Notes: generated by a model from the sequence alone, not told the origin. Counted from the first letter of the stretch, positions 5,992 to 22,087 are shown. The stretch is DNA of 53,151 nt from an uncultured Candidatus Saccharibacteria bacterium (GCA_964495685.1 CAZBVQ010000004.1:1-53151), one strand, 5' to 3'. Translations and numbers: made by a program.

Positions 5992-6567
5992 TTATTTTAC
6001 CTTTTCCCAACTTTTTTTCTTTGCCAAATATACCCAGACATAAGATACATGGCTCTTCGGTTCGGCTACTACAGGGTGGTATCCCATTGGTACTGTGCCG
6101 AAAGTGTGGTCTTTGATCTGCCACACAGAATCAACGGCTGAGTTGTCATACCAAACCCCTTTACCCACTTGAACCCCTCGTTTATTAGCACCCTTTATGA
6201 TGTAGAAGAATACTTCTTCAAATCCTGGTTCAGTATTAAGTTCGAAATCATGAGGCAAACTTGACCAAGTACCCTCACCACGATGGACAGTGATACCTAG
6301 GCGCATAGTCGGAGCAGGGCCTCCGGGCTTTAGATAATGATATACGTCACGCTCGTGATTACCCTCACCCACCACTATCGCGTGGGCATCTTTGGCCTTT
6401 ATAGTCACAGCCTTCTTGCCTGATACAGCAAAGACTACTTTATCGATATTGCCGTCTTTGAGATACACCTCCGCGTGCTCACCCGGAGCATCGAACGTAA
6501 GGATGTCTTTATCCCCGACAACTTTTAGAGTATCCAAATGAGCCTTATTAGACCATTCATATGCCAT
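5992..6567 (-). CDS. IolB/KduI-family cupin isomerase (5-deoxy-glucuronate isomerase-like)
   Basis: TWSSLPH...EEVFFY...VPMGYHPVVAEP...YVWVY resembles the IolB metal-binding motifs. Confidence 0.8.
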   Translation of the reverse strand: MAYEWSNKAHLDTLKVVGDKDILTFDAPGEHAEVYLKDGNIDKVVFAVSGKKAVTIKAKDAHAIVVGEGNHERDVYHYLKPGGPAPTMRLGITVHRGEGTWSSLPHDFELNTEPGFEEVFFYIIKGANKRGVQVGKGVWYDNSAVDSVWQIKDHTFGTVPMGYHPVVAEPKSHVSYVWVYLAKKKSWEKVK

Positions 6568-6616: not shown

Positions 6617-7477
6617 TTATATCACATCTCTTTTCAAGCTCAATATCTGCACATCACCAAAACCAAGTTTTTTGGCCAACTGGTCGAACACTCTCTTGTA
6701 TGGCTGTGGAACTGCCACACTGGGAGCATTGGCTCCAAAACTACAATACGTGTCTATAATCATACCCGTGCGCTTGGCCATTTTTTCCATACCCTCCTTT
6801 GAAGCTACACTCAAATGTTGTACTGGCAATAGATGTGGCCAATTCTCACCGTAAAGCTCCCCCAGCAACCCAAACCGCGGTGTCTCCATAAAAATCTTAC
6901 CTCCTGGTTTAAGTAATTTCTTCAACTTTGCTATAACCACCGTTGGCTCTTCCACATGTTCTATGACATCCCATAGGGTGATGAGGTCAAACTTCATCTT
7001 GGTAGTATCCACTTCTTTCAAAGGAAAGACATCCCAACCACTTGCTCGCGCCTGATCAAGCATCCTTTCCGATAAATCGGTTCCATAAATTTTGGTGTCA
7101 GCACTAAAATATTTTTTGCAAAACTCCAAGAAAACACCGTCGGCGCAACCAAAATCAAGTACTGATTTAATACCTTTTTTGCTAATATGTATATCCTTCA
7201 ATGACATTTCATACTCAGCAAAAACTGTCGAACGATACGACTTGGCATATCGTATCCTGCAGTCAACACCTGGATGTGGTTGCAACCTCTTGTTTAGGTA
7301 ATCATTCTCATAGATCTCTTTTATCTCCGACCGAGAAGGCCTCGGCAGAATCATCAAACTTCCACAACTATTACACTTGTACCATGAGGAATCAAATTTT
7401 TCCCAGCGTACCCGAGCATGAAATGACTTATTCTTCCTATCCCCACACCATACACACGTAGCAGTTTTAAATTTCAT
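6617..7477 (-). CDS. Class I SAM-dependent methyltransferase with N-terminal Cys pairs
   Basis: CVWC and CNSC pairs, VLDFGCADG SAM motif, FDLITLWDVIEHV motif. Confidence 0.88.
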   Translation of the reverse strand: MKFKTATCVWCGDRKNKSFHARVRWEKFDSSWYKCNSCGSLMILPRPSRSEIKEIYENDYLNKRLQPHPGVDCRIRYAKSYRSTVFAEYEMSLKDIHISKKGIKSVLDFGCADGVFLEFCKKYFSADTKIYGTDLSERMLDQARASGWDVFPLKEVDTTKMKFDLITLWDVIEHVEEPTVVIAKLKKLLKPGGKIFMETPRFGLLGELYGENWPHLLPVQHLSVASKEGMEKMAKRTGMIIDTYCSFGANAPSVAVPQPYKRVFDQLAKKLGFGDVQILSLKRDVI

Positions 7478-7479
7478 AT

Positions 7480-8706
7480 TTATGCGATGAATCTCTCCGA
7501 CCTCAACGATTTATAAGCTTCACGTAACGAGTCCGTACGATCATATGCGGCACCCAGGGCAAAACGACGACCAATACAATCTTGTGCATCTATCTCGACT
7601 TTGGCCAACATCGAAGCAACCACATTTTCATCATGATATTTGAAATACCTATCCATATATGCTGGAGTTAGTTTTTCACCAAGAGCCATGCCAATCATGC
7701 CGCCAACAAAATCGGCACCTCGACGCGGTGTGGACCATGATGAATCCCATCCTCCAGAAAGACGAGGTGTAAGCTCGATGATTCTCGGTCCATTCTGTGT
7801 AAGCATGAGATCCGCTTTCAAAAGGTGTCCGCCTTTTTGTTTATCCATACCTATGGCAATGCCAGCTTTCCTGATCATATCTTCAACTGCACGTCTTGTT
7901 TCTTCCGAGTGAGTAGCTGGGTTTATATGTGCCAATTCAACGGCCCATGAAGTATCTCTATATGGATTTTCTTTTTCCTCCCAAATACCATTAAACAAAT
8001 CGAAATCCTTCCGAAAAAGTCGGTCCACCCAGTTGAGCCAAGTCATCCTGCCATCGTACCACAAAGTCTCAGCTGACTGTTCAGCTATCTCACCAACCAC
8101 CGGCACGAGAAGCTCTTCAATTATGACAGAGCCCGTCGTACCATTCCTGACCGCTCGCTCAAAAGCTTCATCTGTAAGTGTCGCCTCGGAATCGATACGT
8201 GAAAAACCGCGACTACCGGAATTATTTGGTGGTTTTAAGGCGGCCGGCAGACCTATTTCTTTCAAAGCCACAAGGGCTTCCTCACGGGTTTTGACCACGC
8301 GGTATTTTGGCTGAGGTATGCCGGCTTTGGTCAACACTTCACGCGTTTCATACTTGTAACGGCACATGTGAGATATCTTCGGATCTATTCCTGGAAGGCC
8401 TAAATACTGGGCAATTATAGCCACAGTTTCATGACAGTCAGCGGCGGAAGTGAAGACCGCCTGAATATCGTATCGTTCTCTTAATTCATCCGCTTTTGTA
8501 AGGTTTTCTTTGATATTGAAAGTGTCCGCATGGACAAACTCATCAGCCATTGGACGAAGTACGCACTTGTCCCAACCGTCGGCGATGATCAAGGCGTACC
8601 CTCGCTCCTTTATCTTCTCGGCCGCAATGCGCTGCATTGGCCCTCCAGCAAAAAGCCATATGGCCTTCGGTTTTTTCAATGAAATTGAGAATGCGGGAGT
8701 TTTCAT
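7480..8706 (-). CDS. ATP-grasp domain ligase
   Basis: Start trimmed to MKTPAF (8706). Motifs CRYKYETR, ALKPPNNSGSRG, IIEELL and IIELTPRLSGG. Confidence 0.85.
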   Translation of the reverse strand: MKTPAFSISLKKPKAIWLFAGGPMQRIAAEKIKERGYALIIADGWDKCVLRPMADEFVHADTFNIKENLTKADELRERYDIQAVFTSAADCHETVAIIAQYLGLPGIDPKISHMCRYKYETREVLTKAGIPQPKYRVVKTREEALVALKEIGLPAALKPPNNSGSRGFSRIDSEATLTDEAFERAVRNGTTGSVIIEELLVPVVGEIAEQSAETLWYDGRMTWLNWVDRLFRKDFDLFNGIWEEKENPYRDTSWAVELAHINPATHSEETRRAVEDMIRKAGIAIGMDKQKGGHLLKADLMLTQNGPRIIELTPRLSGGWDSSWSTPRRGADFVGGMIGMALGEKLTPAYMDRYFKYHDENVVASMLAKVEIDAQDCIGRRFALGAAYDRTDSLREAYKSLRSERFIA

Positions 8707-8707
8707 A

Positions 8708-9595
8708 TTATTTCTTTTTGGCCACAATCATGAACTCACGTCCAATACCTGCTGTGGCCAATCCTGCGTAGAGGTCGTTCAGTATATCAGGATCTTTCTT
8801 ATAAATCATCATCTCGAAATCCTTGCGCTGTTTGTGGCAAACACGTCCGACATTGTGATTACCTATGTAATTTTTCCCCGCAAGCAGAAAAGTTTCAAGT
8901 GGATATGTACCTAGGACCTCCTCTACAATAAATCCTAGACGCTTCAAAAGTCCTGACATGCTATCCATGGTGAAATAATTGAGATGATGTTTTGGCACCA
9001 CCCACCACGGCCCGAAACCGTGCTGGTCTCGCAACGTGAGCTGGAGTGGGTTGAAATCATTAGGACAGAAAATGGCCAATCGACCATCTTTTTTGAGCAT
9101 CTTTTTCATGTCCACAATAAACCCAGTAGGGTTTGGTACATGTTCGAGCACCATGGCCGCATGTACGACATCAAAAGTTCCTAAATGCTTTGCGTCGTCA
9201 TAGTTGAAAAAATTGTTTATTGTTTTCAGGCCGCGCCGATTGCTGTATCTAGCTGCTGGAGCCGACGGCTCAATCCCTACGACTTTCCAACCTCGCTTTT
9301 TGCCGCATGCCAAAAAGTGGCCCGGACCAGAGCCAACGTCAAGCAATTTCCGCCCTCTAGTATGCCTCTCGAACAAAGAATAATAATTATTATACGTGAC
9401 CATCCACCAAGGCAAGTCCTCTTTTGTCTCCTTGAAATAATTGGGTCTTTCATGCTGGTAGAATTCCTGCTCATAGAACATCCTGAGCTCTTTTTCACTC
9501 GGCGTAGGCCACACATGGACAAAGCCACAAGAACGACAATTAATCACTTTTTTTCCGTCCTTTTTCTCCAAGACACGGCCGGCATGCTTTTTCAT
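8708..9595 (-). CDS. Class I SAM-dependent methyltransferase
   Basis: CRSCG motif, LLDVGSGPG, FDVVHAAMVLEHV. Confidence 0.88.
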   Translation of the reverse strand: MKKHAGRVLEKKDGKKVINCRSCGFVHVWPTPSEKELRMFYEQEFYQHERPNYFKETKEDLPWWMVTYNNYYSLFERHTRGRKLLDVGSGPGHFLACGKKRGWKVVGIEPSAPAARYSNRRGLKTINNFFNYDDAKHLGTFDVVHAAMVLEHVPNPTGFIVDMKKMLKKDGRLAIFCPNDFNPLQLTLRDQHGFGPWWVVPKHHLNYFTMDSMSGLLKRLGFIVEEVLGTYPLETFLLAGKNYIGNHNVGRVCHKQRKDFEMMIYKKDPDILNDLYAGLATAGIGREFMIVAKKK

Positions 9596-10629
9596 AATTC
9601 TATGTCGTTAGTTGTTATTGGTGACCGTGCCTTAATATCACACACAGCTCGTTTGCCTATGACTTTTTCAATATCTTTTGGCTCAATACCGCGCATTGGC
9701 CTAAGAGTAATAAGCATTGAATCGTCTATAACTTCCCCTCTGGAAATATCTTTCAGGGCATACAATGAACGACGTGTTCCCCTCTCTTTCACCTCATCAA
9801 CCTCACGGTCTGGGGCCGATATTGGCTCCTTTACACCCGAACGCGACAGAGCGGCTTCAAGACTGCGTATCTCTGACACCATATGTCTAAATTGATCTAT
9901 GGTCATAGAGTTTTTATCATCATTACTATTACCCTCCTGCGAATCTGTTATATGACGCTCAATTAGACAGGCACCGAGAGTGATGGCACCCAGAGTTGCA
10001 GCATTCGACGAAGGTTCGGCATGATCGGAATAACCAACTGGACGACTAAGTTCTTTCCGCAAAGTTTGTATGGCTTTCAGGTTCAGATCTTTAGACTCTG
10101 GAGGATATAGAGAGACACAGTGGAGGACAACTATCTGATCATTACCTTCATTTTTTATGACTTCAACCGCATGCTTAACTTCATCCATATAGGCCATGCC
10201 CGTAGAAATAATGACCGGCTTACCCTTCTTGGCTATGTGACGCAAAAGAACATCATCCGTCATTTCGTAAGAAGCAACTTTGTACGCTAGCACGCCAGAT
10301 TCAGCCAAAAGGTCAACTGCACCTTTATCAAACGGCGTGGACAAAAATAGTATATCTTTTTGTTTTGCCTTAGCGATCAGTTGCGGAGTCCATTCATAAG
10401 GCAACTCGGCTGACTTGTAAAAATCTGACAGAGGTTCAGCGGCAATTTTGTCGTGGATCAGGTGCTGAAATTTAACCGCGTCTGCTCCGGCAGCTTGTGC
10501 AGCATCAATCATGGCCAAAGCGGTATTTATGTCACCACGATGATTGGCGCTCACCTCCGCTATAACAAAAACAGGCTGTCCGTCGCCCACCTTTCTGGTG
10601 CCAATAGTAACATTTCCCTTATTCATCAA
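9592..10629 (-). CDS. pseI: N-acetylneuraminate/pseudaminic acid synthase (NeuB/PseI family) with C-terminal SAF domain
   Basis: VFVIAEVSANH, GADAVKFQ, LSTPFD, HCVSLYP, GYSDH and an RRSL..LRP SAF tail. The pseI name rests on pseB/pseC context. Confidence 0.85.
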   Translation of the reverse strand: MMNKGNVTIGTRKVGDGQPVFVIAEVSANHRGDINTALAMIDAAQAAGADAVKFQHLIHDKIAAEPLSDFYKSAELPYEWTPQLIAKAKQKDILFLSTPFDKGAVDLLAESGVLAYKVASYEMTDDVLLRHIAKKGKPVIISTGMAYMDEVKHAVEVIKNEGNDQIVVLHCVSLYPPESKDLNLKAIQTLRKELSRPVGYSDHAEPSSNAATLGAITLGACLIERHITDSQEGNSNDDKNSMTIDQFRHMVSEIRSLEAALSRSGVKEPISAPDREVDEVKERGTRRSLYALKDISRGEVIDDSMLITLRPMRGIEPKDIEKVIGKRAVCDIKARSPITTNDIEL

Positions 10630-10640
10630 TAAGATTGATA

Positions 10641-11264
10641 TTATACCAAACGTTCTTTCTTGTCACCAATAGAAGCCGTCTTGTATGTACCAGAATGTAA
10701 TGCGGCCAGACCGTCAGCCTCAGATGCTAACCTTTTTATATATGCAGGAGTCTGTTTTACCACACCAAATTCTTTTTCAAATTCCGGACGAACGGACGTG
10801 ATGACATCCTCAGCCACAACAATATTTGCACGTACGCTTGATTTGAGAGTTTTCCACATGGCCGACAACCTAGGTACATGGTATTCGTTTGTAACAATAA
10901 TAATGTCCGACCAGCCAAGTTTTTTTGACAGAGACTCGGCTTCGGACATACCGTTCAGTGTAGTAGTCGAGTTTTCCTCACGGATTATGCGTGAAGGTGC
11001 GATCCCCAGTTTAACTAATTCACTTTCCATAACTGCGGCATGAGAAGGTACAAACTGATCTCGAATACCTTTTCCCCCAGGCACAATTTTCGTATCCGGA
11101 TACATTTTTCCCAAAATGGAGGCTGCTTCCACACGAGCATATCCGCCAAGCACACCAAAAGAATCCCCATCTTCGTATGAAGTCGACCGGTAACCGCCAT
11201 CGACCGAACGTACCGTTCCACCAGTAGGGATAATTATAGCATTGGGCCGTATTTCTCTTGTCAT
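10641..11264 (-). CDS. YdcF/DUF218 family protein
   Basis: IIIPTGG, R..A, E..S.TT and IIIVTNEYH.PR motifs. Confidence 0.8.
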   Translation of the reverse strand: MTREIRPNAIIIPTGGTVRSVDGGYRSTSYEDGDSFGVLGGYARVEAASILGKMYPDTKIVPGGKGIRDQFVPSHAAVMESELVKLGIAPSRIIREENSTTTLNGMSEAESLSKKLGWSDIIIVTNEYHVPRLSAMWKTLKSSVRANIVVAEDVITSVRPEFEKEFGVVKQTPAYIKRLASEADGLAALHSGTYKTASIGDKKERLV

Positions 11265-12181
11265 AATTTTATCTTACTCCACAGACTTGGATTTACAGCA
11301 CCCCTATTCAGATCCTTGAATGCACTCGACATTTCGCTGATCATTCCATCATCGACTGAAGACCCGGCTCCATCTTCCAGATCTTGAGCAAGCTGTCTGA
11401 CATTGTCTACTCCAAAGACTATGTAGTCGGCGCGACATCTCGCATACACAAAGTCCAAGGAAGCTTCCACCTGTGTTCTACCATACTTTTGAGCAATATT
11501 GATAAATGCGCCCAAGAATGGCTTTAAATATTGCAAATGGGTCGGTAATTTGTCTGGCCGCATCAATAACAACCCCTGTAGAAATGGACTTCTAGCAAAT
11601 ACTGTAGTTTTGTTTGCTTTTGCGCGATCAAAAAAATGTGTACTATCCAATCGTTGGTCAAAGACGTTATAAGGCACCTGTACACAGTCAGACCCGAGCT
11701 CGACTGCCTGTAGGGCTTCAGCCTCATCATAAACAGAAACACCGACATGTTTCACCAGGCCATCTTGTTTTACCTGTCGCAACCCGTCCATGGCATACTT
11801 TAGATATACATAATACGGGGAATGAAACATGTATGCTTCTAATGAATCGAGGCCGAGCCGTTTCAATGATTTTTCCAGTTCCATTCGCACAATATCAGAA
11901 ATCTTTGTGCCGTCAGGATAGTCATTTATGGCATGGGGCTTCATCTTTGAGATTACTTTAACTTTGCCCGAAAGAGACCGACTCCTGATCCATGCCCCTA
12001 GTACATCTTCGGCTGTACCGTAAGCCCACGCTGTATCAAACGTATCGATACCTGCAGCCAAAGCGGTATCAAGAATAGAAAAGGATTCACTTTCTGTCGG
12101 TTGTCCACATTGATTGTTTAGGCCGTATTTCATGCCCAACTGCACGGTACCCAAGACAAGTTGTGGATGGTTAATTTTCAT
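11261..12181 (-). CDS. Aldo/keto reductase family oxidoreductase
   Basis: Start trimmed to MKINHPQLVLGTVQLG (12181). Motifs GIDTFDTAWAYG, ISK, YMFH, GVSVY and VQVPYNVFD. Confidence 0.9.
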   Translation of the reverse strand: MKINHPQLVLGTVQLGMKYGLNNQCGQPTESESFSILDTALAAGIDTFDTAWAYGTAEDVLGAWIRSRSLSGKVKVISKMKPHAINDYPDGTKISDIVRMELEKSLKRLGLDSLEAYMFHSPYYVYLKYAMDGLRQVKQDGLVKHVGVSVYDEAEALQAVELGSDCVQVPYNVFDQRLDSTHFFDRAKANKTTVFARSPFLQGLLLMRPDKLPTHLQYLKPFLGAFINIAQKYGRTQVEASLDFVYARCRADYIVFGVDNVRQLAQDLEDGAGSSVDDGMISEMSSAFKDLNRGAVNPSLWSKIKL

Positions 12182-12959
12182 TTTGCAATTTTTTGAACTC
12201 CTCATCTTCTTTGAGTGACTTGGCCAGTCCCTCATATCCAGTACCCCCCCTGTTGATTGCCATAAGCTCCGGATGGGCCTCCAACAATGCAAGTACGTCA
12301 TCCTTGCCAAAATAGGGTTTGTTTTTGTACAAATACTCAAAAACTTTTGTCACAAATGAAAAATCGGCCTCCGTATCAACAGACCAATGCATCTTTGAAT
12401 CATCTCTCGTGCCTGTTTTCCACTGTAACGCTCTGAAACGCTCAGGATGATTTATAAAATAACGCGCCACATGTTCGCGCTCGGAAGGTAATTTTGCACT
12501 GAGGGCGGCCTCCTCAAGACCGACAAATGAAAATACGTTGAAATCAAGACCTTCCGGATAATTGAGCACTGTCCCGGTAAAAATGTATGGGTCCTTGGCG
12601 TCTATATAATGCTGCACACCTTCATCTACAACCAAAGGGTCCTGCAAAGGGCAGTCGGCCAACAGACAAGTGATGGCTGTATCTTTGTCAGCCCCCATGC
12701 TTTTTGCCGCTTGATAGAATCGGTCAAGCACGTCCTTCTCACTACCACGAAAAACAGCCACTCCACAACTCTTGACCAAAGCTTCGGTGGCATCATCCTC
12801 TAGTTTGTCCGTCGTTGCCACAACTATGGCATCCAATTTTTGAGCCCTTTTTATACGCTCGAGCATGTGTCCGAGCATGGGTCGGCCCAAGATAGGACGG
12901 AGTATTTTGGCGGGCAGACGGGTTGATCCAGCACGAGCTTGTATTATGGCTAATATCAT
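12171..12959 (-). CDS. spsF: SpsF-type acylneuraminate cytidylyltransferase (CMP-nonulosonate synthetase-like)
   Basis: IIQARAGSTRLPAK, FRGSEKDVLDRF, REHV and WSVDTEAD motifs. Confidence 0.85.
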   Translation of the reverse strand: MILAIIQARAGSTRLPAKILRPILGRPMLGHMLERIKRAQKLDAIVVATTDKLEDDATEALVKSCGVAVFRGSEKDVLDRFYQAAKSMGADKDTAITCLLADCPLQDPLVVDEGVQHYIDAKDPYIFTGTVLNYPEGLDFNVFSFVGLEEAALSAKLPSEREHVARYFINHPERFRALQWKTGTRDDSKMHWSVDTEADFSFVTKVFEYLYKNKPYFGKDDVLALLEAHPELMAINRGGTGYEGLAKSLKEDEEFKKLQNEN

Positions 12960-12966
12960 CGGTAGT

Positions 12967-13800
12967 CTAATTATATCTCATTGTAATCTCTTTGACTGCA
13001 TCATGGATTGTCTTATTTTTTGCAAATATTACGCTGGTACTAAAACGATTTCCTGACCTACGAAAAAGATCCAGCGGCTGACCATGCAAATCACTAGCTA
13101 TACCTCCTTGCTCCTCGACAAAAAGACTGCCAGATACAATATCCCAAGGTTTGATATCTGGTGTCAAATAAGCTCCAGTGATGCCGGACGCAAGCAGGCA
13201 CCCGTCAACTACAGCCGATGCCGAGCGACGTAGATCTGATGATGCCAGCCAAATATCCCTATACAAAGCGAATGCTCGGTCCGCCACATCTTTCGTACGT
13301 GAATGTGGAAATCCGACGCTGACCAGACTTTGCCCCAAAGTTTCATCAGGATTGACAATTACAAGTTTTTTGTCGTTTAGAAATACACCCTGTCCACGTA
13401 CTGCATGATACATATCACCCGTGGTGGGGATATAGTTTACAGCCATGGCCGCCTTGCCTTCATCCATGAGGGCCACGGATACAGCATAAGCGTCCAGCCC
13501 TTTTACATAGTTGGTCGTACCATCCAAAGGATCCATAATCCACAGACGTTTTTTATCAGGAGTATATTCCACACGCGTTTCTTCACTCAAAATTGAATCC
13601 TGAGGAAATTCACTGGCAATGGTCTCAATTAGTAACGATTCCGACTCAATATCGACACTTGTCGTCACGTCCAAATAACCATCACCGTGCGGCTGTTTTA
13701 TAATCTTATTCCGTTCCCGCGAGACCGTAAGAATAGTACCGGCTTTTAGGACCACATCCTTTGCGATCTGCAGTTCCCTTTTGTAATTATCTGTTTTCAT
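12967..13800 (-). CDS. Inositol monophosphatase family protein
   Basis: LSEE, WIMDPLDGTTNY and PWDI motifs. Confidence 0.92.
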   Translation of the reverse strand: MKTDNYKRELQIAKDVVLKAGTILTVSRERNKIIKQPHGDGYLDVTTSVDIESESLLIETIASEFPQDSILSEETRVEYTPDKKRLWIMDPLDGTTNYVKGLDAYAVSVALMDEGKAAMAVNYIPTTGDMYHAVRGQGVFLNDKKLVIVNPDETLGQSLVSVGFPHSRTKDVADRAFALYRDIWLASSDLRRSASAVVDGCLLASGITGAYLTPDIKPWDIVSGSLFVEEQGGIASDLHGQPLDLFRRSGNRFSTSVIFAKNKTIHDAVKEITMRYN

Positions 13801-13817
13801 AAATATAGTTTTTTGTT

Positions 13818-14843
13818 TTATGTTAATTTTTTTAGGGACTCCAAGACACCCTTTATCGCAGATCCAATACGTTCATTATAACCAAAACGCTTGCGAAGTT
13901 TGGCTTTGCTTAAATATATTCTCAATTGATATAAAGCCAGTTTCTTATCAAAGTCGCTCGGTCGTCGTGAACAACCAAAATATCCACCACAAAACGAATC
14001 GAATATTTCATCCGACACATATGTTCCATAAAATGCCAGATCAAAAATAGGGTCACCCGATTTCGCTTGTGACAGGTCTATGGCCGCAACCACTTTCCGG
14101 CCAATTTCATCAATCATAATGTTAGCATTGTGATAATCGCCATGGAGTATCACGCCATCCTCAATATCCAGCAATCTCTCGTGTCGCCCAAACGCATCAG
14201 AAACATCTCTTCCTTCTTTGACCGTCAGTAATTGGTGTTCAACTAAATATGTTACCGTCTCCTCCAAACGGGTACATATAGCTTCTTTCCACGTCGTCTG
14301 GATTCCTCGTAGCACGCCGCTCCGCAACACAAGCGTACCGAATCCCTCCATCGGAACCGCGTGAATGTTTCTCAAAAACTGACCTGACGACTCGGCATAT
14401 AAAGTAGCATCTTGAGGATATGTCCTGAGATATTCTTCTATATCATGAGTTCCAACATTTTCCAAAAGTATGTAATCGGGATCACTTTTTTTGGTCCTCA
14501 AAATCACATCATAGACTTCGGGGCTTGGTATACCTGCCCGATGCCACACTCTATACAACTCGGCCTCAACCAAAAAATGTTCAGCGACCAGTGGATCAGT
14601 ATTAAGTCGAAAAACTACTCGCAAACCTTTGTCAGTATATACCCTGAAGACTAGGTGATCAAAAGCATTGGCCCCTGCCCCTAACGGCTCCACCCGCGAT
14701 ATATCCGCTCCCAACGAATTCTTGGCTATACGACTAATCACGCTCTGTGATTTGAAGTGTGAATACCTGTCTCTTTTTCGCTTCAAATCCTCATCAGAAA
14801 GTGGCGAATCCGCTTTTGGATCAAATATTGGTCCGTGAATCAT
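13818..14843 (-). CDS. Aminoglycoside phosphotransferase (APH/choline-kinase-like) family protein
   Basis: Catalytic LHGDYHNANIM and metal-binding AIDLS motifs. Confidence 0.85.
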   Translation of the reverse strand: MIHGPIFDPKADSPLSDEDLKRKRDRYSHFKSQSVISRIAKNSLGADISRVEPLGAGANAFDHLVFRVYTDKGLRVVFRLNTDPLVAEHFLVEAELYRVWHRAGIPSPEVYDVILRTKKSDPDYILLENVGTHDIEEYLRTYPQDATLYAESSGQFLRNIHAVPMEGFGTLVLRSGVLRGIQTTWKEAICTRLEETVTYLVEHQLLTVKEGRDVSDAFGRHERLLDIEDGVILHGDYHNANIMIDEIGRKVVAAIDLSQAKSGDPIFDLAFYGTYVSDEIFDSFCGGYFGCSRRPSDFDKKLALYQLRIYLSKAKLRKRFGYNERIGSAIKGVLESLKKLT

Positions 14844-14845
14844 GT

Positions 14846-16177
14846 TTAGTTTAGACGAGCAAATCCTGTGTGGGCTTCTGGCCCGCGCAACTTTTTTCTA
14901 ACTGTCCCCGACTGTATCGCCTCTTTTATGATCGCGTAGGTCTCATCGACCGCCTTGAGATATTTATGTATGTGTACGTCATTATGGGCACATGATGCAA
15001 AGAACATATTTGTGGCAAGAAATCCTCTGCCGAGCATTTCCTGAACAAAAAGAGTTTTCATGGCTTGACTGTCTTTGCCATACTGAAATGAAAAACTGCT
15101 AATCGGAACTACTCCACCGAGCTTAATATCAAGTTCATGTTTCTGCGCCAACCTAATCCATCCTTCACGAACTTTCTTTCCAACTGCATGAAGCCGTTTT
15201 GGTACCTCTACTTTTTTCATCTTTCGTATGGTAGCCAGTGCCGCGGTTGGACCTATTCTTTCTGTCCAGTAAGTACTCGAAATAAAAGATTGCTGAGCGG
15301 CCTGCATCACTTCTCTACGACCAATAATTGCGGCCATCGGATACCCATTGCTCATCGCCTTGCTAAATACGGCAATATCTGGGTAAACACCATATAGGAG
15401 ATGTGCTCCGCCATAAGCAAGTTTCCACCCAACTGTTATCTCATCAAAAATAAGTACGGCACCAGTTTCCGAAGCGATTCTCCTAACGTCTTCAAGAAAA
15501 TCATTCTCGGGTTCAATGTTATGTATTGGCTCCATGATTATAGCCGCCAAATTAGCTCCAGCCTTCCTGACTATTGACTCCAACTCCTCTATCTTATTGT
15601 AATGAAAAGGCATGATCGTACCACCCAGACTCTTGGGAACTCCGGCCGGCATAAGACCCGCCAACAAATGTTCCTTCAGATCGTCTTTACCAGTAAGATT
15701 GGTAGCCAAATACCAATCGTGCCATCCGTGATATCCGCAGAAAGCAATTATGTCCCTACCAGTGTGGGCACGCGCAATACGCTCTGCAATGGCCATAGCT
15801 TCACCTCCTGTACGCGCATATCGCACCATTTCAGCCCAAGGGTGTATCTGACACAAAAGTTCAGCCAACTCAACTTCTTCTGGAGCGTTCAATGTGGACA
15901 TCGAGCCGTTGTCAACAGCCTTCTTTACAGCGGCATTTACATCCTTGTCAGCATAACCCAGCATACAGCTGCCCACTCCCATAATAGACATGTCAATGTA
16001 TTTTTTGCCATCCAGGTCCCACACTTCACAACCTCTGGCTTTGGAGTAATACGCCGGCCAATGATCAGGCAAAAACATCTCGGCTCGCTTTGAAAGCAGC
16101 TGATTGCCACCGGGTATCAACTTCTTTGCTTTTTGCCAGAGTTTTTGACCTGAATTATTTTTAGAATTTTGACTCAT
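14846..16177 (-). CDS. Class III PLP aminotransferase (glutamate-1-semialdehyde aminomutase-like, polysaccharide-cluster type)
   Basis: IPGGNQLLSKR, GCEVWDLDG, YHGWHDW, LIFDEI and PLP-lysine FSKAMSNGYP. ATGA overlap with pseC. Confidence 0.9.
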   Translation of the reverse strand: MSQNSKNNSGQKLWQKAKKLIPGGNQLLSKRAEMFLPDHWPAYYSKARGCEVWDLDGKKYIDMSIMGVGSCMLGYADKDVNAAVKKAVDNGSMSTLNAPEEVELAELLCQIHPWAEMVRYARTGGEAMAIAERIARAHTGRDIIAFCGYHGWHDWYLATNLTGKDDLKEHLLAGLMPAGVPKSLGGTIMPFHYNKIEELESIVRKAGANLAAIIMEPIHNIEPENDFLEDVRRIASETGAVLIFDEITVGWKLAYGGAHLLYGVYPDIAVFSKAMSNGYPMAAIIGRREVMQAAQQSFISSTYWTERIGPTAALATIRKMKKVEVPKRLHAVGKKVREGWIRLAQKHELDIKLGGVVPISSFSFQYGKDSQAMKTLFVQEMLGRGFLATNMFFASCAHNDVHIHKYLKAVDETYAIIKEAIQSGTVRKKLRGPEAHTGFARLN

Positions 16178-17316
16178 AACTTAGAAAGTATACTCTTTAA
16201 AGTATCTGCCACAAACTTTTGCTGTTTCACTGTTATCCCAGGAAAAAGAGGTAGTGATATTTCGGCCGACACAAAAGCTTCGGCATTTGGACACAATCCT
16301 TTTTTGTATCCTAATTTTTCGTAATAAGGATGGGTGTGAACTGGGATATGATGTACCTGTACCCCGATGCCAGCTTCGCGCATTTTCGTAAAGATTTCGT
16401 CGCGTCTGTATGTGATGGGCCGTGCCAATCTAACTGGAAAAAGATGCCACGCCGATTTTTCATGGACACACTCGACGGGGGGAAGGATTACGTTGGGAAC
16501 ATTGGCCAGTAATTTCCTGTACCTCAAAGAAGCTGCCCGACGTTTTGCAATGAATGAGTCCAGACGCTTCAACTGACTGGATCCGAGAGCAGCGGACATC
16601 TCTGGCATACGGTAATTGAATCCGAGTTCCTGCATCTCTTGATACCAAGCCGCGCGATCCTTACGGGCAAAAGTCTTGGCATCTTTACTTATGCCATGAT
16701 TGCGAAATAGTCTCATAGCATCGTAAAGCTTCAGGTTGTCAGTCACGATAATGCCACCTTCTCCTGTGGTAATTGATTTTACCGGATGAAAACTAAACAT
16801 GGTCATATCTGCCTGTATGCCGACTGATTTACCGTAATATTCTGCACCCAACGACTGCGCACCGTCCTCAATAAAGACAATCTTGTGTTTATCAGCAAGA
16901 GCTCGAAACGCGTGCAGATCCGCTGGACGGCCACTGTAATCAACAGGAACTATGGCCTTTGTCTTTTTTGTTATTTTGGCGCGCGCCACACTTACACTCA
17001 TATTACCGGTATTTGGATCAGAATCAGCGAAAATCGGCTTTGCACCGAGATATAATACCGCATTAGCTGTAGCCGCAAAAGTCAACGACGGAACAATAAC
17101 CTCATCCCCTTTACGTACACCAGCGGCGAAATAGGCAGCATGCAATGCTGCAGTGCCTGAATTAAAGGCTACGGCATACTTCGCCCCAACTTTCTTGGCA
17201 ACATCTTTCTCAAATTTCTCGACTGCAGGCCCCTGCGTAAGCCAGCCAGACACAAGCGATCGTACGACCGCCCTGACGTCTGCCTCGTTGATGTCCTGTG
17301 TTGAATAAGGAATCAT
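16174..17316 (-). CDS. pseC: UDP-4-amino-4,6-dideoxy-N-acetyl-beta-L-altrosamine transaminase (PseC, DegT/DnrJ family)
   Basis: MIPYSTQDI..WLTQGP, FSFHPVKSITTGEGG and GFNYRM. Directly follows pseB. Confidence 0.88.
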   Translation of the reverse strand: MIPYSTQDINEADVRAVVRSLVSGWLTQGPAVEKFEKDVAKKVGAKYAVAFNSGTAALHAAYFAAGVRKGDEVIVPSLTFAATANAVLYLGAKPIFADSDPNTGNMSVSVARAKITKKTKAIVPVDYSGRPADLHAFRALADKHKIVFIEDGAQSLGAEYYGKSVGIQADMTMFSFHPVKSITTGEGGIIVTDNLKLYDAMRLFRNHGISKDAKTFARKDRAAWYQEMQELGFNYRMPEMSAALGSSQLKRLDSFIAKRRAASLRYRKLLANVPNVILPPVECVHEKSAWHLFPVRLARPITYRRDEIFTKMREAGIGVQVHHIPVHTHPYYEKLGYKKGLCPNAEAFVSAEISLPLFPGITVKQQKFVADTLKSILSKL

Positions 17317-18336
17317 TTATTGCTTCAAAAGCTCTTTTTCCATATGAGCAACAATTCGAAGAAGTTCTTTCTTCGACATACGCTTCTCCGCAGTGTCGCT
17401 CGTAAAATGAAAATCTTGCTTCAATTTTTTGCCCATTTTCAAGAATTTTTGGATGCCTTTCTTCTGACGTGAAGTACTCGAGTGTTCTGGCAGAATAACA
17501 AAGTATTCTCTGAGCTCTACAGCATGTCTTGCTTCTTCCTTAGTAAGTAACACCTCGTGAACCTTCTCTCCTGGACGTATGCCTATGACAGTGCGTTTTG
17601 CTTCGGGAGCCAAAATATCAAACAAGTCAGTGAGTTTCATCGCCGAAGCCTTCGGTACAAATATTTCCCCCCCTTCCATATTTTCTAACGCAAAGAGAAC
17701 GATCTGCATGGCATGCTCAAGATCTATCCAAAAACGGGTCATGCGCTCTTCTGTTATCTGTACGGTGCTAGCCCCCTTATTTAGAATAAGTTTCTCAATG
17801 ATACTGCCGCGGCTTCCGACGACGTTGCCGTAACGTACAACACTGAAACATGTATCGCCGTCGGCGCTGTATGAGTTACCAGCAATAAAAAGTTTTTCAG
17901 CAGAAAGTTTGGTGGCCCCATAAAGGTTTACTGGCATAGCCGCTTTGTCCGTAGAAACAAGGACAACTTGACCAACCTTCTGATCTAAGGCGGCTTCTAT
18001 AACGTTTTGCGAGCCAATGACGTTAGTTTTCACCGCCTCAAACGGATTGTATTCAAGTGCAGGGACCTGTTTCAAAGCCGCGGCATGCACGACAATATCC
18101 ACCCCATCAAAAGCACGCTGAAGCCTCGGGAGATCGCGCACGTCACCTATGAAAAAACGTATGCGCTCATCCTTGATTTCCATCTGCATCTGGAACTGTT
18201 TCAGCTCATCACGTGAGAAAATTATGAGCTTTTTTATCTCGGAATTTGCCAAAACATATTTCGCAAATGTCCTACCGAAAGAGCCGGTGCCTCCAGTAAT
18301 GAGCATCGTCTTGCCACTTAGTTTTTGTAGATTCAT
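17317..18336 (-). CDS. pseB: UDP-N-acetylglucosamine 4,6-dehydratase (inverting), PseB
   Basis: ITGGTGSFG, SRDELKQ, HAAALKQVP..EYNP, STDKA..PVNLYGATK, RYGNV.GSRGS and IRPGEK.HE. Confidence 0.92.
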   Translation of the reverse strand: MNLQKLSGKTMLITGGTGSFGRTFAKYVLANSEIKKLIIFSRDELKQFQMQMEIKDERIRFFIGDVRDLPRLQRAFDGVDIVVHAAALKQVPALEYNPFEAVKTNVIGSQNVIEAALDQKVGQVVLVSTDKAAMPVNLYGATKLSAEKLFIAGNSYSADGDTCFSVVRYGNVVGSRGSIIEKLILNKGASTVQITEERMTRFWIDLEHAMQIVLFALENMEGGEIFVPKASAMKLTDLFDILAPEAKRTVIGIRPGEKVHEVLLTKEEARHAVELREYFVILPEHSSTSRQKKGIQKFLKMGKKLKQDFHFTSDTAEKRMSKKELLRIVAHMEKELLKQ

Positions 18337-18385: not shown

Positions 18386-20221
18386 CTAAACACAGATCTT
18401 TTTTACACATTCCGCGACTCGCTTGGAGGCTTTTCCGTCAAAAAGATAGCCATCCAGAAACTGTTTTTGCTGCCCCAGCAATTTTTCACGATAATCTGAA
18501 TCAGTAAATATGCCAGAAACAGCATTCGTTGCTTCATCTTTTGAATAGATTATCGGTATCAGAGGATCATATATTTGCGCATGATATGAATCAAAGTGTC
18601 TCCAAGGATGTAGAACGATGGGTTTACCGGCTATGGCCGCCTGATATATCACGGTTGAGTTGTTGCAGATAATCGCATCACTGGCGCAGACAAATGGAAA
18701 TATATCCTCTTCCCCAGTCACAGCAAAATCTTTGTCAAAAAGCTCTTTCAGATACTCTGCAGTCACCGTGATAAGTCTTGAAACTCGACACTTGAACAGT
18801 ACTTGCAATCCGGGAGTTTTTCTTTGTATATTCCTGATCATCGCCAAAAATTCCGCCAATTGGTATGAATCGATTGTTGATACATATGTTTCGGAAAATG
18901 GAACAGCCACTAATAAAATTGGCCTCCTTACATCAAGACCCAACCTTTCGATCATGATCTTGCCAGCGTTACGTCCGGCCTCTTGTTCATTCGTATACCG
19001 ATCAAAACGTGGAGACCCAGTGGCAATAAGTTTGCCCTTATCATTACCTATGCGTTCGTGCCATTCATTTATACTTTTTCCATATGTCAAAAGAAAATCT
19101 GTTTCTATTCGACAGAAAACAGATCTTGGGTCTATAGTCACAGTGGCATGCTGTAGTTCAGCCGTCTTTATGCCAAGCTCTCTGGCAATATGGGCCATGA
19201 GTAGAAAGTAATGATGTGGCCCACCTACCGATGCCATCTGTAGGACAAGATTTGGTTTTTCCTTTTTCATAATGCCATACAAAATGTCTATGTCAGCAAC
19301 TACACGTGGTGAATACCATACGATATGTCCACAAGCTTCAAGAACCGGGCCCCAGTCAAGATCAGGTTGGATGCTGTGTAAATATCCAGCAACTTCTTTC
19401 TTCGCCTCTTGCCACTCACGCACAAATCCGTCGCCAATCTCACGTGCCAAACGCTCCTCTTGGCCATTTACCGGCCTGTGAGAATACAAAAAACGCACAC
19501 GATGAGCCATAACCTGACTCCACGGAACTTCCCTGAATTTTTTTGTTTCCAAGACAATTATTTCCGTATCGTCCAAGTGCGGCACCAACGATTCCGCGTG
19601 AGTCCAATAACCGCTCAAATAAATTTTGCGTCTGTGCCTAGGAGCCACCAAGCCAACAAAAATATTGAGAGTGTGCAGTAGCCATGATTTCCAAGTGGTG
19701 CGTTCAAACTTGTATATATTAGGTATTTTCCGGACATATCCGTTAGCGCCAACCAAGCCGACCATACGCGCAGCATCCAGCACAGTCCATGACTGCAAAG
19801 CCATCAAACATTCCATGGACATATTCTTGGAAACTGGATCAGGAATAACAAAATGCGCTCCTGGATGTGCCTTTTTTAGGAAAATGAAGATACGGACATA
19901 ATAAAACAGTTTTGCCAGATAGGCTTGCATTATCGGTTCCGGTGCTTCCGCGATACGAACATTTCGGTATTTGAAAAAATCCATAGACGACATTCGATAC
20001 CATTCACGGGAAATATCATGGGACCTTTTCCACCAGATTTCTTCATCCGTTTCCACATCAACAAAACTGCGCAAGGGTACGAATGGAATACTTCTCTTTT
20101 TGCATTCTCTTTCGAGTAAAAAATCCAAACATATTGTTGTACGCGCACCATCACAATTGGCCGCTTCGTCAAGATGACCTTGCTCGTACGCTATAAATAT
20201 TTCTTTCAAGGCGAATTGCAT
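18386..20221 (-). CDS. GT-B-fold surface carbohydrate transferase-like protein (CDP-glycerophosphotransferase/sialyltransferase-like)
   Basis: ELQHA, TGSPRFD and SDAIICNNSTVIYQAAIAGKP motifs. Paralogous to the next ORF. Confidence 0.65.
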   Translation of the reverse strand: MQFALKEIFIAYEQGHLDEAANCDGARTTICLDFLLERECKKRSIPFVPLRSFVDVETDEEIWWKRSHDISREWYRMSSMDFFKYRNVRIAEAPEPIMQAYLAKLFYYVRIFIFLKKAHPGAHFVIPDPVSKNMSMECLMALQSWTVLDAARMVGLVGANGYVRKIPNIYKFERTTWKSWLLHTLNIFVGLVAPRHRRKIYLSGYWTHAESLVPHLDDTEIIVLETKKFREVPWSQVMAHRVRFLYSHRPVNGQEERLAREIGDGFVREWQEAKKEVAGYLHSIQPDLDWGPVLEACGHIVWYSPRVVADIDILYGIMKKEKPNLVLQMASVGGPHHYFLLMAHIARELGIKTAELQHATVTIDPRSVFCRIETDFLLTYGKSINEWHERIGNDKGKLIATGSPRFDRYTNEQEAGRNAGKIMIERLGLDVRRPILLVAVPFSETYVSTIDSYQLAEFLAMIRNIQRKTPGLQVLFKCRVSRLITVTAEYLKELFDKDFAVTGEEDIFPFVCASDAIICNNSTVIYQAAIAGKPIVLHPWRHFDSYHAQIYDPLIPIIYSKDEATNAVSGIFTDSDYREKLLGQQKQFLDGYLFDGKASKRVAECVKKICV

Positions 20222-20227
20222 GTGGAT

Positions 20228-22087
20228 TTATATTTTTTTCTCGGACAAACCTTTTTTTATCACCCGCTGTATGAGTCCGATAAGACGAGGGACAGATCGA
20301 CCGTCAAACGCATAGTTTTGAGACAAAAAGGACGTGGCTCGCTCTTTCAATTCACGAAGAACTTTTTCTGAAGACAATTCTTGGAGTACCAATGAAAGCT
20401 CTTCCGCTGATCGAGCTATTCGCACAGCTCGTTCTTTTTCATATGGACCAAAGTGAAAGGATACGAAATGATTTTCTAGCGGTGATACTGTAGCTAAAAT
20501 AGTCGGAATGCCACAAATAAGCAACTCTAATGCCGCAGTACTATAACAAGACACGGCAACCTTAGCGTGACGACATGCATCCAGAACAGATCCGCCCTGC
20601 GATATCTTGTACCGCCCATCTCCAAAGGCCTTTTTCAAAGCGGCATGATAAAAAGGCTGTCTACGCGGTCCGCGAAGTTTTATGCGCACGGATATACTAG
20701 ATGAGCTAGTGGCATTTGCCACCGCCCGAAAATACTCGTACGCATCATAGCTGTCATACACGGCCGGTAAAGACACATCTGGAGCGATACAAACGAGCTC
20801 TTCGCCTTGATCGGCTTGCACCGAGTCTATTGTGCTATATAAAGAATCAAAATGTGGCGATCCTACAACCAAAAGCTCCGGTCTTTCTGGTACACAACGT
20901 TCCATCTCCCCTTGAATGATCTTGCCATAAAGTGCAAGGTAACCCGCTGTATGAAATCTGGATACGGATCCCGGTGCAAATATCTCCAATCCATGTTGAA
21001 GTTCTATTGATGGTATACCTAGTTCCTTGGCCACCAGGGCAAGTATAGGAAAATGCGGTTGAGCACTGACGCTAGCACGCAGTATGACTAAATCAGGCTT
21101 AACTCTATAAATCAAAGAATAGATACGCTCAATCTCCATGAGATTTTCTTGCATTTGATATTTAATGATTGCATCCAATGCGCTCACTACAACTTTCGAC
21201 ATGTCATATCTACCGTATCTAAAATTGGCTGAAAGAATTTCGCCCCTACAATTTTTCCAATCGTCAGAAATACGCTTTTCCGCCTCACGGGCTCGAGTCA
21301 CCGTATCGAGACTCAAACGGCCGGGCCCATGCATAAAGCGTATTCGATTACGAAATATGGTTTTCAAGGGAATGTTCTTTGATTCTTGTCTGTCATACAA
21401 AACAAGCGAACTTCTTGGCAACCTGTCAAATAGCGGCCCGATATGTTTCCAGTATTCGCTGGCCAATACTCTAATTCCATTTTTTCTTTGTATAAATCCA
21501 AAGAATAGATTCGCTATTCCCAATCCAATCTTAAGTATGTGACTATTGATACTATCGTTTTTGACGATGGAGGTCATGACTGGCTGTCCTATTTTTTCAC
21601 AGATTACATCTTGCTCGGCACACATTTCCCTAGCACACAATACCAGCGCTTCATTCTCGTAGTACAAAGCTGTGTCTTTTTCGATAGGTGGTGAAAAATA
21701 TGGTTCACATATGTAGATCATTTCAGGTTTTTCCACTGACAAGATTTGGTCCACAACCTCACCGAAATACAGCCATTTCTCTAAATATATGTGTAACGAA
21801 AAACAAAACAAGTGATCCATGGATACGCCGCGATAACTCATCTTCGACAAGACCAGATTACGGACATTGGTCACCAGTTCTTCAGTAAACTCCAGATTTC
21901 TTAGTCGTTCCCCTCGCCTATACATCAATGACGACTTGAATGTCACACCCACCTCCGCAAGCAACCATTCGAGTTCCTGATCAAAAGTCACGACTACCAC
22001 TTCACGGCCCTCGTCCTTAAGCCTAGAATAGGTCTGTCCGATGATTCCAGCTTGTGTCGGTTCGTATCCGAGAATAACGACTTTCAT
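20228..22087 (-). CDS. GT-B-fold surface carbohydrate transferase-like protein (paralog of 18386-20221)
   Basis: ELQHG, VGSPHFD and AVSCYSTAALELLICGIP. Same motif order and the same DG(K/R)(A/S) C-terminal end as the neighbour. Confidence 0.65.
   Translation of the reverse strand: MKVVILGYEPTQAGIIGQTYSRLKDEGREVVVVTFDQELEWLLAEVGVTFKSSLMYRRGERLRNLEFTEELVTNVRNLVLSKMSYRGVSMDHLFCFSLHIYLEKWLYFGEVVDQILSVEKPEMIYICEPYFSPPIEKDTALYYENEALVLCAREMCAEQDVICEKIGQPVMTSIVKNDSINSHILKIGLGIANLFFGFIQRKNGIRVLASEYWKHIGPLFDRLPRSSLVLYDRQESKNIPLKTIFRNRIRFMHGPGRLSLDTVTRAREAEKRISDDWKNCRGEILSANFRYGRYDMSKVVVSALDAIIKYQMQENLMEIERIYSLIYRVKPDLVILRASVSAQPHFPILALVAKELGIPSIELQHGLEIFAPGSVSRFHTAGYLALYGKIIQGEMERCVPERPELLVVGSPHFDSLYSTIDSVQADQGEELVCIAPDVSLPAVYDSYDAYEYFRAVANATSSSSISVRIKLRGPRRQPFYHAALKKAFGDGRYKISQGGSVLDACRHAKVAVSCYSTAALELLICGIPTILATVSPLENHFVSFHFGPYEKERAVRIARSAEELSLVLQELSSEKVLRELKERATSFLSQNYAFDGRSVPRLIGLIQRVIKKGLSEKKI

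Follow-up and report, generated by a model that had tools for sequence, protein, structure and literature searches.

A pseudaminic-acid-like locus of a Parcubacteria genome with no recognisable PseG or PseH may produce a nonulosonic acid bearing an additional amino group

Nonulosonic acids decorate flagella, S-layers, capsules and lipopolysaccharides, and influence what phages, hosts and immune lectins recognise. The 53,151-nucleotide contig CAZBVQ010000004.1 (GCA_964495685.1, from an uncultured Candidatus Saccharibacteria bacterium; the whole stretch is hereafter called the window) carries a gene array that begins as a pathway to pseudaminic acid (Pse) and then departs from it, and the question raised by this locus is which sugar the array makes. 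The window is contig C4 of the genome of an ultra-small bacterium, 833,750 bases long and 98.3% complete, and its closest protein relatives belong to Kaiserbacteria, Paceibacteria and other Parcubacteria. Sixteen co-directional minus-strand genes, overlapping or separated by gaps of less than about 50 nt, run from position 18336 to position 2701. There is about an even chance that their product is a nonulosonate activated with cytidine monophosphate (CMP), derived from PseB and PseC, other than ordinary Pse5Ac7Ac (5,7-di-N-acetyl-pseudaminic acid), and made and exported by this array of about 16 genes. A cassette of an aldo-keto reductase (AKR), an SpsF-type cytidylyltransferase (CT) and a class III aminotransferase (AT-III) within the array probably adds some extra amine to the sugar skeleton; that it does so by oxidation and then transamination at C8 specifically, giving an 8-amino-8-deoxy sugar, is a hypothetical outcome which, by analogy, could go either way.

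The genes from PseB to the nonulosonate synthase are the following.

17317-18336, minus strand: PseB, inverting UDP-GlcNAc 4,6-dehydratase, first pathway step (TIGR03589, 438.2 bits, cut-off 407.75; PF02719)
16174-17316, minus strand: PseC, DegT-family aminotransferase leading to UDP-4-amino-4,6-dideoxy-beta-L-AltNAc (TIGR03588, 474.7 bits, cut-off 423.5)
14846-16177, minus strand: AT-III, glutamate-1-semialdehyde (GSA)-aminomutase-like (PF00202, E=4e-45; top NCBIfam matches PRK06209 and GntE)
13818-14843, minus strand: APH-fold small-molecule kinase (PF01636, 85 bits)
12967-13800, minus strand: IMPase/HisN-family phosphatase (PF00459, 170 bits; every NCBIfam equivalog score under its cut-off)
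12171-12959, minus strand: SpsF-type CTP_transf_3 CT, presumed CMP-nonulosonate synthetase (PF02348, 97.8 bits)
about 11261-12181, minus strand: AKR (PF00248, 126 bits)
10641-11264, minus strand: DUF218 protein (PF02698, 54 bits)
9592-10629, minus strand: NeuB-family nonulosonate synthase of a divergent clade (PF03102, 242 bits; SAF domain)

A preliminary description of positions 9592-18336 had named six of these nine genes, and profile matches on the minus strand agreed with it for PseB, PseC, the NeuB/PseI-family synthase, the SpsF-type CT, the AKR and the class III aminotransferase; the kinase, the IMPase-family phosphatase and the DUF218 protein had been missed. The order of transcription of the whole array is PseB, PseC, AT-III, kinase, IMPase, CT, AKR, DUF218, NeuB, methyltransferase, ATP-grasp, methyltransferase, KduI/IolB, short-chain dehydrogenase (SDR), conserved protein and ABC exporter.

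The canonical CMP-Pse pathway of Campylobacter and Helicobacter consists of PseB, PseC, PseH, PseG, PseI and PseF. The window shares with it the first two steps, a NeuB-family condensation and CMP activation, and differs from it in having no PseH, PseG or NeuA-type PseF, in a synthase that scores under the PseI cut-off, and in extra tailoring enzymes. The PseG profile TIGR03590 gave a single match over the whole genome, of 20 bits, to an open reading frame (ORF) on contig 2 that was also matched by a hidden Markov model (HMM) built from the PseG-like genes of related loci; this candidate was rejected, as it is MurG according to TIGR01133 (252.4 bits, cut-off 250.25) and its GGTGGH motif. For PseH, neither TIGR03585 nor HMMs built from the PseH-like genes of related loci matched anywhere in the genome, and the general GNAT model PF00583 detected no member of that family there, although it matches 14 of 14 control genomes. 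The total lack of PF00583 matches is unusual even for a reduced genome. Likewise, there was no match to NeuC in the genome. PseG was not found in any of 13 loci from the candidate phyla radiation (CPR), nor, genome-wide, in any of eight other CPR carriers or three carriers from Bacteroidales or Lachnospiraceae, and all four positive controls scored above the cut-off. The window CT is the sole CTP_transf_3 gene in the genome and is of the SpsF type, scoring 37.9 bits with the PseF profile TIGR03584 (cut-off 205.7), so that any use of the NeuB product requires this CT as the CMP-activating enzyme. The synthase scores under the cut-offs of both PseI (TIGR03586, 302.4 bits against 340.25) and NeuB (283.9 bits against 399.65). 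In the tree, the NeuB proteins of PseG-less loci fell into neither the PseG-linked clade (96% SH-aLRT) nor the NeuC-linked one, and that of the window formed its own long branch with those of loci L002 and L003 (L numbers denote the loci compared below).

As far as profile searches can tell, PseG and PseH are thus absent from the window and from the genome. The genome-wide HMM search, which the preliminary description had set as a check on its view that neither gene is recognisable, found only MurG in place of PseG and no PseH, and its view that the pathway is non-canonical is upheld by the lack of PseG, PseH and a NeuA-type PseF genome-wide and by the position of the NeuB in the tree. Among the six defining enzymes, PseB and PseC are present and three, PseH, PseG and PseF, were not found, so the locus is not a member of the canonical pathway. 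It could still be argued that the array makes ordinary Pse5Ac7Ac, or Pse with one free amine, with the PseG and PseH functions supplied by analogues and the AKR and AT-III irrelevant or inactive; PseB and PseC are indeed canonical, and absence by HMM cannot exclude analogues of other folds. This explanation deserves hardly any credence, given a genome with no GNAT and a NeuB outside the PseI clade. The catalytic residues of the AKR and AT-III are moreover invariant and the AT-III is 52-84% conserved across domains, which indicates strong purifying selection on an active enzyme, and overlaps of 4 nt between the genes suggest translational coupling.

How widespread the additional enzymes are was addressed by scanning species-representative genomes for the AT-III. 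Of 600 matches listed, 596 were confirmed, which is a lower bound; at least 596 genomes thus carry the AT-III, from bacteria of about 25 phyla and from archaea (Methanoregula, Methanosarcinales, Promethearchaeota and Micrarchaeota), with 52-78% identity among the matches listed. For a comparison of 83 loci, the ORFs of 80 fetched loci, three Parcubacteria contigs and the window were clustered, cluster HMMs were built, clusters were named with NCBIfam and all six frames were re-searched. The AT-III was co-located with an SpsF-type CT in 55 loci, NeuB in 53, PseB in 48 and PseC in 49, and the neighbouring oxidoreductase was an AKR in 32 and a Gfo/Idh/MocA protein in 28, at the same position of the cassette. 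The most frequent gene orders were AKR-CT-ATIII (13 loci) and Gfo-CT-ATIII (nine loci), and the complete triad was counted in 55 of the 83 loci. In the window the genes are likewise adjacent, in the order ATIII-(kinase-IMPase)-CT-AKR-DUF218-NeuB, with those for the CT and AKR overlapping. Judged by gene content and order, the locus is a member of an uncharacterised AKR/Gfo-CT-AT-III cassette family.

Gene fusions also occur within the cassette: AKR and CT are fused in L018 and L019 (from a planctomycete and an omnitrophote), and CT and AT-III in L083 (a gammaproteobacterium) and L090 (8266-10299). The latter is a PGAP-annotated coding sequence of 677 aa in the cultured Roseobacter Pseudosulfitobacter pseudonitzschiae SMR1, between pseB-pseC-AKR and pseG-pseI. 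Its gene order in full is pseB, pseC, AKR, GNAT, a hypothetical gene, CT-ATIII, pseG and pseI, and Halorussus aquaticus (L089) carries genes for a Gfo protein, for a 'glycosyltransferase family protein' of 247 aa that is probably the CT, and for an AT-III; both organisms are cultured and non-pathogenic, and in both the cassette is on a megaplasmid (pSMR1-1 in P. pseudonitzschiae). Minimal clusters such as that of Methanoregula, PseB-PseC-Gfo-CT-ATIII-PseG/H-NeuB, contain no other CT and no ATP-grasp gene, which indicates that the cassette acts on the nonulosonate itself and that its CT activates the sugar. The AT-III also occurs in loci of the legionaminic acid (Leg) type with NeuC and a NeuA-type CT (L015, L048, L052, L058 and L065). 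In Patescibacteria, close orthologues were found in 3 of 401 species of an even sample, and the trait, patchy there, was probably acquired horizontally.

PseG-like genes were present in 25 of the 83 loci and PseH-like GNAT genes in 27, often as PseG-PseH fusions. Such fusions were seen in L020, L037, L057, L069 and L077, and a PseH-NeuB fusion in L011, a Saccharibacteria locus. Because the cassette mostly coexists with PseG-like and PseH-like genes, the loss of PseG and PseH and the possession of the cassette are independent features, and the link between the two that the preliminary description had implied is not supported. In most organisms the cassette is an addition to a complete Pse pathway, replacing PseF rather than PseG or PseH. 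Nor is the arrangement new as a gene set: published gene maps, with no functional tests behind them, show it in the group I flagellin glycosylation islands of Aeromonas (PMC7874193), in a Vibrio cluster with a CT-AKR fusion (PMC7371886) and in the O-antigen locus of Legionella pneumophila Sg6/12 (PMC3694923). The Aeromonas group I islands share pseB, pseC, AKR, pseF, class III aminotransferase and pseI genes with the window, and in their subgroup ID pseG and pseH are missing, as they are from the window, while genes for a methyltransferase and a hydrolase are additional (PMC7874193). They differ in serving flagellin through Maf transferases, whereas in the Parcubacteria locus the transferases are TagF/BFO_1060-like and an ABC exporter is encoded, with additional DUF218, ATP-grasp, kinase and IMPase genes.

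What the cassette does is best approached through two epimerase systems of Acinetobacter baumannii in which a CT is coupled to an oxidoreductase. EpaA, a CTP_transf_3-AKR fusion, and the SDR EpaB, both from A. baumannii prophages, convert Pse5Ac7Ac to 8-epi-Pse5Ac7Ac, as demonstrated by nuclear magnetic resonance after complementation (PMC12053666). ElaA (Gfo/Idh/MocA), ElaB (CT) and ElaC (SDR) are needed for a capsule with 8-epi-Leg in A. baumannii KL49 and are also known from V. vulnificus; from mutants, crystal structures and docking, ElaA was proposed to oxidise the C8 hydroxyl of CMP-Leg5Ac7Ac and ElaC to reduce the 8-keto form (PMC13656337). Action at C8 has been proposed for both EpaA and ElaA, in 8-epimerases (PMC12053666, PMC13656337). 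The window resembles EpaA/EpaB in that an SpsF-type CTP_transf_3 protein would work with an AKR on a pseudaminic-type acid, and fused AKR-CT versions of the cassette are known from L018 and L019; in contrast, the CT and AKR of the window are separate genes, their neighbour is an AT-III and not an SDR, and amination rather than epimerisation is predicted. When the AKR was searched by tblastn against a phage collection, only generic AKRs of about 23-25% identity were found. The resemblance to ElaABC lies in the order of oxidoreductase, CT and second enzyme, the order of Gfo-CT-ATIII being that of ElaA-ElaB-ElaC, in the 28 loci with a Gfo/Idh/MocA protein like ElaA, and in the best PDB relative of the cassette Gfo, 3EZY, which is the model used to solve ElaA. 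On the other hand, ElaB is of the PseF/NeuA type and the window CT of the SpsF type, an AT-III stands in place of ElaC, and the pathway is based on PseB and PseC, not on Leg.

The AKR and the AT-III of the cassette keep intact catalytic residues. The motif GYHGWHDWY and the pyridoxal phosphate residues K273 and D245 of the AT-III do not vary among 75 orthologues (52-84% identity among those fetched), and its PDB relatives are GSA aminomutases (GSA-AM) and the sugar C-6' aminotransferase GenB1. The AKR has the catalytic tetrad D102, Y107, K132 and H173 (numbered along the long ORF), which is unchanged in all 31 orthologues; homology begins near M54 of the ORF starting at 12340. The closest PDB match of the CT is 6oew. 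An 8-keto-9-deoxy nonulosonate is a methyl ketone, a typical substrate of class III amine transaminases. We therefore predict that the AKR is a C8 oxidoreductase forming a keto intermediate and that the AT-III transaminates a keto-nonulosonate, likeliest in its 8-keto (methyl ketone) form; the 8-amino product is predicted because the AT-III occupies the position of the SDR in the EpaAB and ElaABC modules. By analogy, the locus may be regarded as a Pse pathway joined to a C8 module of the EpaAB/ElaABC type in which the reductase has been replaced by a transaminase. The preliminary description had come to an extra amine, for example at C8, from KdnB/KdnA, which convert Kdo to 8-amino-Kdo in Shewanella by oxidising a hydroxyl of an ulosonic acid and then transaminating it; this is now the best-supported reading, through the closer precedents of EpaAB and ElaABC, for a product that is hypothetical. 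The analogy with KdnB/KdnA is one of logic only, as these act on the primary alcohol of an eight-carbon sugar and belong to other enzyme families (KdnB is a metal-dependent alcohol dehydrogenase, compared with the AKR and the GSA-AM-like enzyme here).

Epimerisation itself has to be weighed, since the CT and AKR together with the downstream SDR (5294-5974) might form a C8 epimerase of the EpaA/EpaB type yielding an 8-epi-Pse-type acid, in which case the AT-III would, for example, make an amine or acyl side chain or epimerise an amine-bearing carbon. EpaA has exactly this architecture of CT and AKR and depends on an SDR as its partner, and an SDR is present in this operon and in 26 of the 83 related loci. 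However, the SDR of the window lies outside the conserved cassette, six genes away, and is paired with KduI; many complete clusters carry the cassette without any SDR (for example L020, L035, L037 and L055); and it is the AT-III whose gene is adjacent or fused to that of the CT. The coupling of a CT to an AKR or Gfo protein is shared with EpaAB and ElaABC, and the SDR position is taken by the AT-III, so the locus is not a member of these epimerases; we consider an epimerase rather unlikely.

With amination by the cassette as the preferred reading, the step left vacant by PseG remains to be filled. The DUF218 gene adjoins NeuB or the cassette only in PseG-less loci, namely the window, L002, L004, L014, L026, L045 and L070 (whichever of the two ORF calls is used), L043 (in the first call alone), and L086 and L087. 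Among the NeuB-containing loci, it was found in 0 of 22 with PseG and in 5 of 31 without PseG (Fisher p=0.07). Its AlphaFold2 (AF2) model has a pLDDT of 90, and a Foldseek search against the PDB gave no significant match, the best being to HUP/AANH-like Rossmann folds (E=8e-3, TM about 0.4), so the fold gives no clue to function, and searching the PDB by sequence yielded no match either. From its distribution, DUF218 is a reasonable candidate for the step that frees the sugar from UDP in place of PseG.

Nor is there a GNAT to acylate the sugar; instead, the synthase gene is followed by an ATP-grasp ligase gene flanked by two methyltransferase genes, and then by KduI/IolB and SDR genes. The rest of the array consists of the following.

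8708-9595, minus strand: S-adenosylmethionine (SAM) methyltransferase (Methyltransf_23), directly after NeuB, conserved in Parcubacteria loci
7480-8727, minus strand: ATP-grasp carboxylate-amine ligase (weak ATP-grasp Pfam matches; NCBIfam PRK02186, LysX, RimK)
6617-7477, minus strand: second SAM methyltransferase (DREV/Methyltransf_23 type)
5992-6567, minus strand: KduI/IolB-family cupin isomerase (PF04962; TIGR04378 55.7 bits, under cut-off)
5294-5974, minus strand: SDR (adh_short_C2)
4512-5288, minus strand: conserved protein of 258 aa (no Pfam or NCBIfam match; 65-70% identity in L002 and L086)
2701-4488, minus strand: ABC exporter with fused transmembrane and ATPase domains (PF00005, PF00664; syntenic in L002 and L086)

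In place of PseH, the array probably relies on its ATP-grasp and methyltransferase genes, and the ATP-grasp ligase may, by analogy, form an amide between an acid other than acetic acid and the amine or amines left free. In Shewanella oneidensis, sfmABCDE, which encode a thiamine pyrophosphate (TPP) enzyme, a reductase, a methyltransferase and an ATP-grasp protein, accompany a mono-N-acetyl nonulosonate that bears an O-methylated substituent of 236-264 Da (PMC3765264). By gene set, the window resembles this system in its ATP-grasp, SAM methyltransferase and SDR genes, the ATP-grasp protein being an analogue of SfmE/SO_3265 (PMC3765264), and differs in having KduI/IolB and a second methyltransferase and no TPP enzyme. 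In the Kaiserbacteria loci L003 and L004 (15601-21149), the methyltransferase, KduI and SDR block of the window gives way to two ATP-grasp genes and to genes for an SDR, a CMAS-like methyltransferase and a split TPP enzyme of transketolase type, a set closer still to sfmABCDE, with an extra DegT/Gfo pair upstream. The KduI/IolB cupin is a candidate for tailoring or side-chain synthesis, and the SDR, which had no PDB relative at E<=1e-25, could be a side-chain maker or an EpaB-like partner. The AF2 model of the 258-aa protein had a pLDDT of 47 and was unusable for fold comparison.

These genes also admit the explanation that the AKR and AT-III leave the nine-carbon skeleton alone and make a small amino or hydroxy acid, for example from an aldehyde acid, and that the ATP-grasp ligase puts this acid on N7 instead of acetyl. 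Aldehydes are handled by GSA-AM-like enzymes and by AKRs alike, ATP-grasp and methyltransferase genes do follow NeuB, and the mono-N-acetyl nonulosonate of S. oneidensis with its large acyl group is a case in point. Against this, the cassette occurs in minimal clusters with PseH and PseG and without a ligase, it is fused to the CMP-transferase, and its oxidoreductase can be exchanged for the Gfo/Idh/MocA type that was assigned to C8 of CMP-Leg in the Ela study. A role confined to the side chain is accordingly judged quite improbable, and an amine on the skeleton is retained as the preferred outcome.

The kinase and IMPase genes that interrupt the cassette are a peculiarity of few loci. Only 34 homologues of the kinase were found at E<=1e-10 among 5.8 billion protein clusters, with weak PDB matches to hygromycin and macrolide kinases, and the pair is absent from the other 82 loci of the comparison. 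In all three loci fetched with it (L086, L087 and L088) the kinase gene is followed by an IMPase-family gene, and in L086 and L087, one AKR-type and one Gfo-type Parcubacteria cluster, the pair lies between AT-III and CT. In L088 (288-2170) it is at a contig end, with the upstream side cut off and no nonulosonate genes downstream; to judge by the ribosomal L18e/L13/S9 genes and the KH/beta-CASP gene with an intein nearby, this contig is probably from an archaeon. The most economical guess is that the pair is a rare add-on in some Parcubacteria that would transiently phosphorylate and then dephosphorylate an intermediate.

With a kinase of the APH fold and an IMPase inside the cassette, KduI/IolB downstream and two Glyphos_transf-like proteins upstream, the AT-III, kinase, IMPase, CT and AKR might instead form an aminocyclitol-like or CDP-amino-alcohol pathway with streptidine-like logic, giving a CDP-linked product for TagF-like transferases. 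Yet the sister clusters L002-L004 lack the kinase and IMPase and keep all else, no inositol-phosphate synthase was noticed in the window, and the CT is the sole CTP_transf_3 gene, so that a CT devoted to CDP-cyclitol synthesis would leave the NeuB product without activation. This reading is unlikely, and is given very little weight, because nothing but the CT could serve as CMP-nonulosonate synthetase.

For transfer and export, the ABC protein is likely to be an exporter of a glycan or lipid-linked glycan, and candidate transferases lie directly upstream of PseB.

18386-22087, minus strand: two paralogous proteins of about 610 aa with TagF-like/BFO_1060-like C-termini (weak PF04464; NF046086 36 bits and TIGR04396 32 bits, both under cut-off)

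This pair is syntenic at the same place in L002, L086 and L087. The NF046086 family includes BFO_1060, the putative pseudaminic-acid transferase of Tannerella, and the two proteins probably serve as CMP-nonulosonate transferases or polymerases. The nonulosonate block is separated from a run of GT4 glycosyltransferase genes by a GT9-like (heptosyltransferase-like) gene (22104-23171, minus strand) and a weakly FkbM-like methyltransferase gene (23105-23989, minus strand), both kept in L002 and L086 and absent from L087. The GT9-like protein was rejected as a hidden PseG, as it matched heptosyltransferase models only and is absent from L087, the one other kinase-bearing locus whose upstream side was read. 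The GT4 run lies beyond the GT9-like protein, and the glycosyltransferase block is adjoined by a gene for a 698-aa TraG/VirD4-like coupling-protein homologue (34169-36265, minus strand; weak TrwB/T4SS-DNA_transf matches).

Considering these results together, the following route is suggested. PseB and PseC would form UDP-4-amino-4,6-dideoxy-L-AltNAc, from which the sugar would be freed by an enzyme other than PseG, with DUF218 as the candidate; NeuB would condense the free sugar with phosphoenolpyruvate and the CT would convert the product to a CMP-sugar. Either before or after this activation, the AKR may oxidise a secondary hydroxyl, likeliest that at C8, to a methyl ketone, and the AT-III, in place of the re-reducing SDR of the epimerases, may transaminate the ketone to give an 8-amino-8-deoxy (5,7,8-triamino) nonulosonate. 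The free amine or amines would be acylated by the ATP-grasp ligase in place of PseH, with an acyl group probably constructed by the products of the KduI and SDR genes, and methylated by the two methyltransferases, after which the TagF/BFO_1060-like proteins would transfer the sugar and the ABC protein would export the product.

Two further observations from other organisms bear on a third amine. Seven loci carry two different PseH-like GNATs, one above the need of Pse5Ac7Ac, which is consistent with a third amine for acylation and is circumstantial. An odd nominal mass needs an odd number of nitrogens, and Pse5Ac7Ac has two. Aeromonas hydrophila AH-1 is listed in island subgroup IA (pseB-pseC-AKR-pseF-ATIII-pseG-pseI), in which the AKR and AT-III genes are the only extra ones. 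Its flagellin bears a single Pse-like sugar of 403 Da, some fragments of which are one m/z unit from those of Pse5Ac7Ac (PMC4691044). The 403-Da glycan fits an extra amine by mass parity alone, again a circumstantial point. A unique composition for this mass was sought and given up, as too many combinations fit.

Several points weigh against this route. AKRs are usually NADPH-dependent reductases, not oxidases. The CT and AKR are equated with EpaA on the strength of their domain architecture, it is by analogy only that the modification is placed at C8 and not at C4, and the SDR 5 kb downstream could complete an EpaAB-like epimerase. The idea that DUF218 substitutes for PseG comes from a complementary distribution in small numbers (the p value given above) and a non-significant fold search. 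In the literature searched, no assay of any cassette enzyme and no 8-amino or triamino nonulosonate was found, and a search on nonulosonates in the CPR returned nothing relevant. The AH-1 mass is of low resolution, and its authors proposed a nitrogen-free formula (PMC4691044). The proposal in its widest form, that the AKR/Gfo-CT-AT-III cassette is the basis of undescribed 5,7,8-triamino-3,5,7,8,9-pentadeoxy-nonulosonic acids in hundreds of bacterial and archaeal species, with a PseG/PseH-independent route in Parcubacteria (hexose release by DUF218, acylation by ATP-grasp and transient phosphorylation by the kinase and IMPase), is therefore put forward tentatively, with somewhat more doubt than confidence.

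If a third amino group is indeed added, the cassette found in the genomes of at least 596 species would define a new family of nonulosonates and account for orphan glycan masses, among them that of the 403-Da sugar in A. hydrophila AH-1. Release of the hexose by DUF218 would give this protein a first biochemical role. The route without PseG and PseH points to DUF218 and the ATP-grasp ligase as candidates for the replacement enzymes. About 2.5% of this 834-kb Parcubacteria genome is spent on the glycan, which is therefore probably central to the surface presentation of the epibiont.

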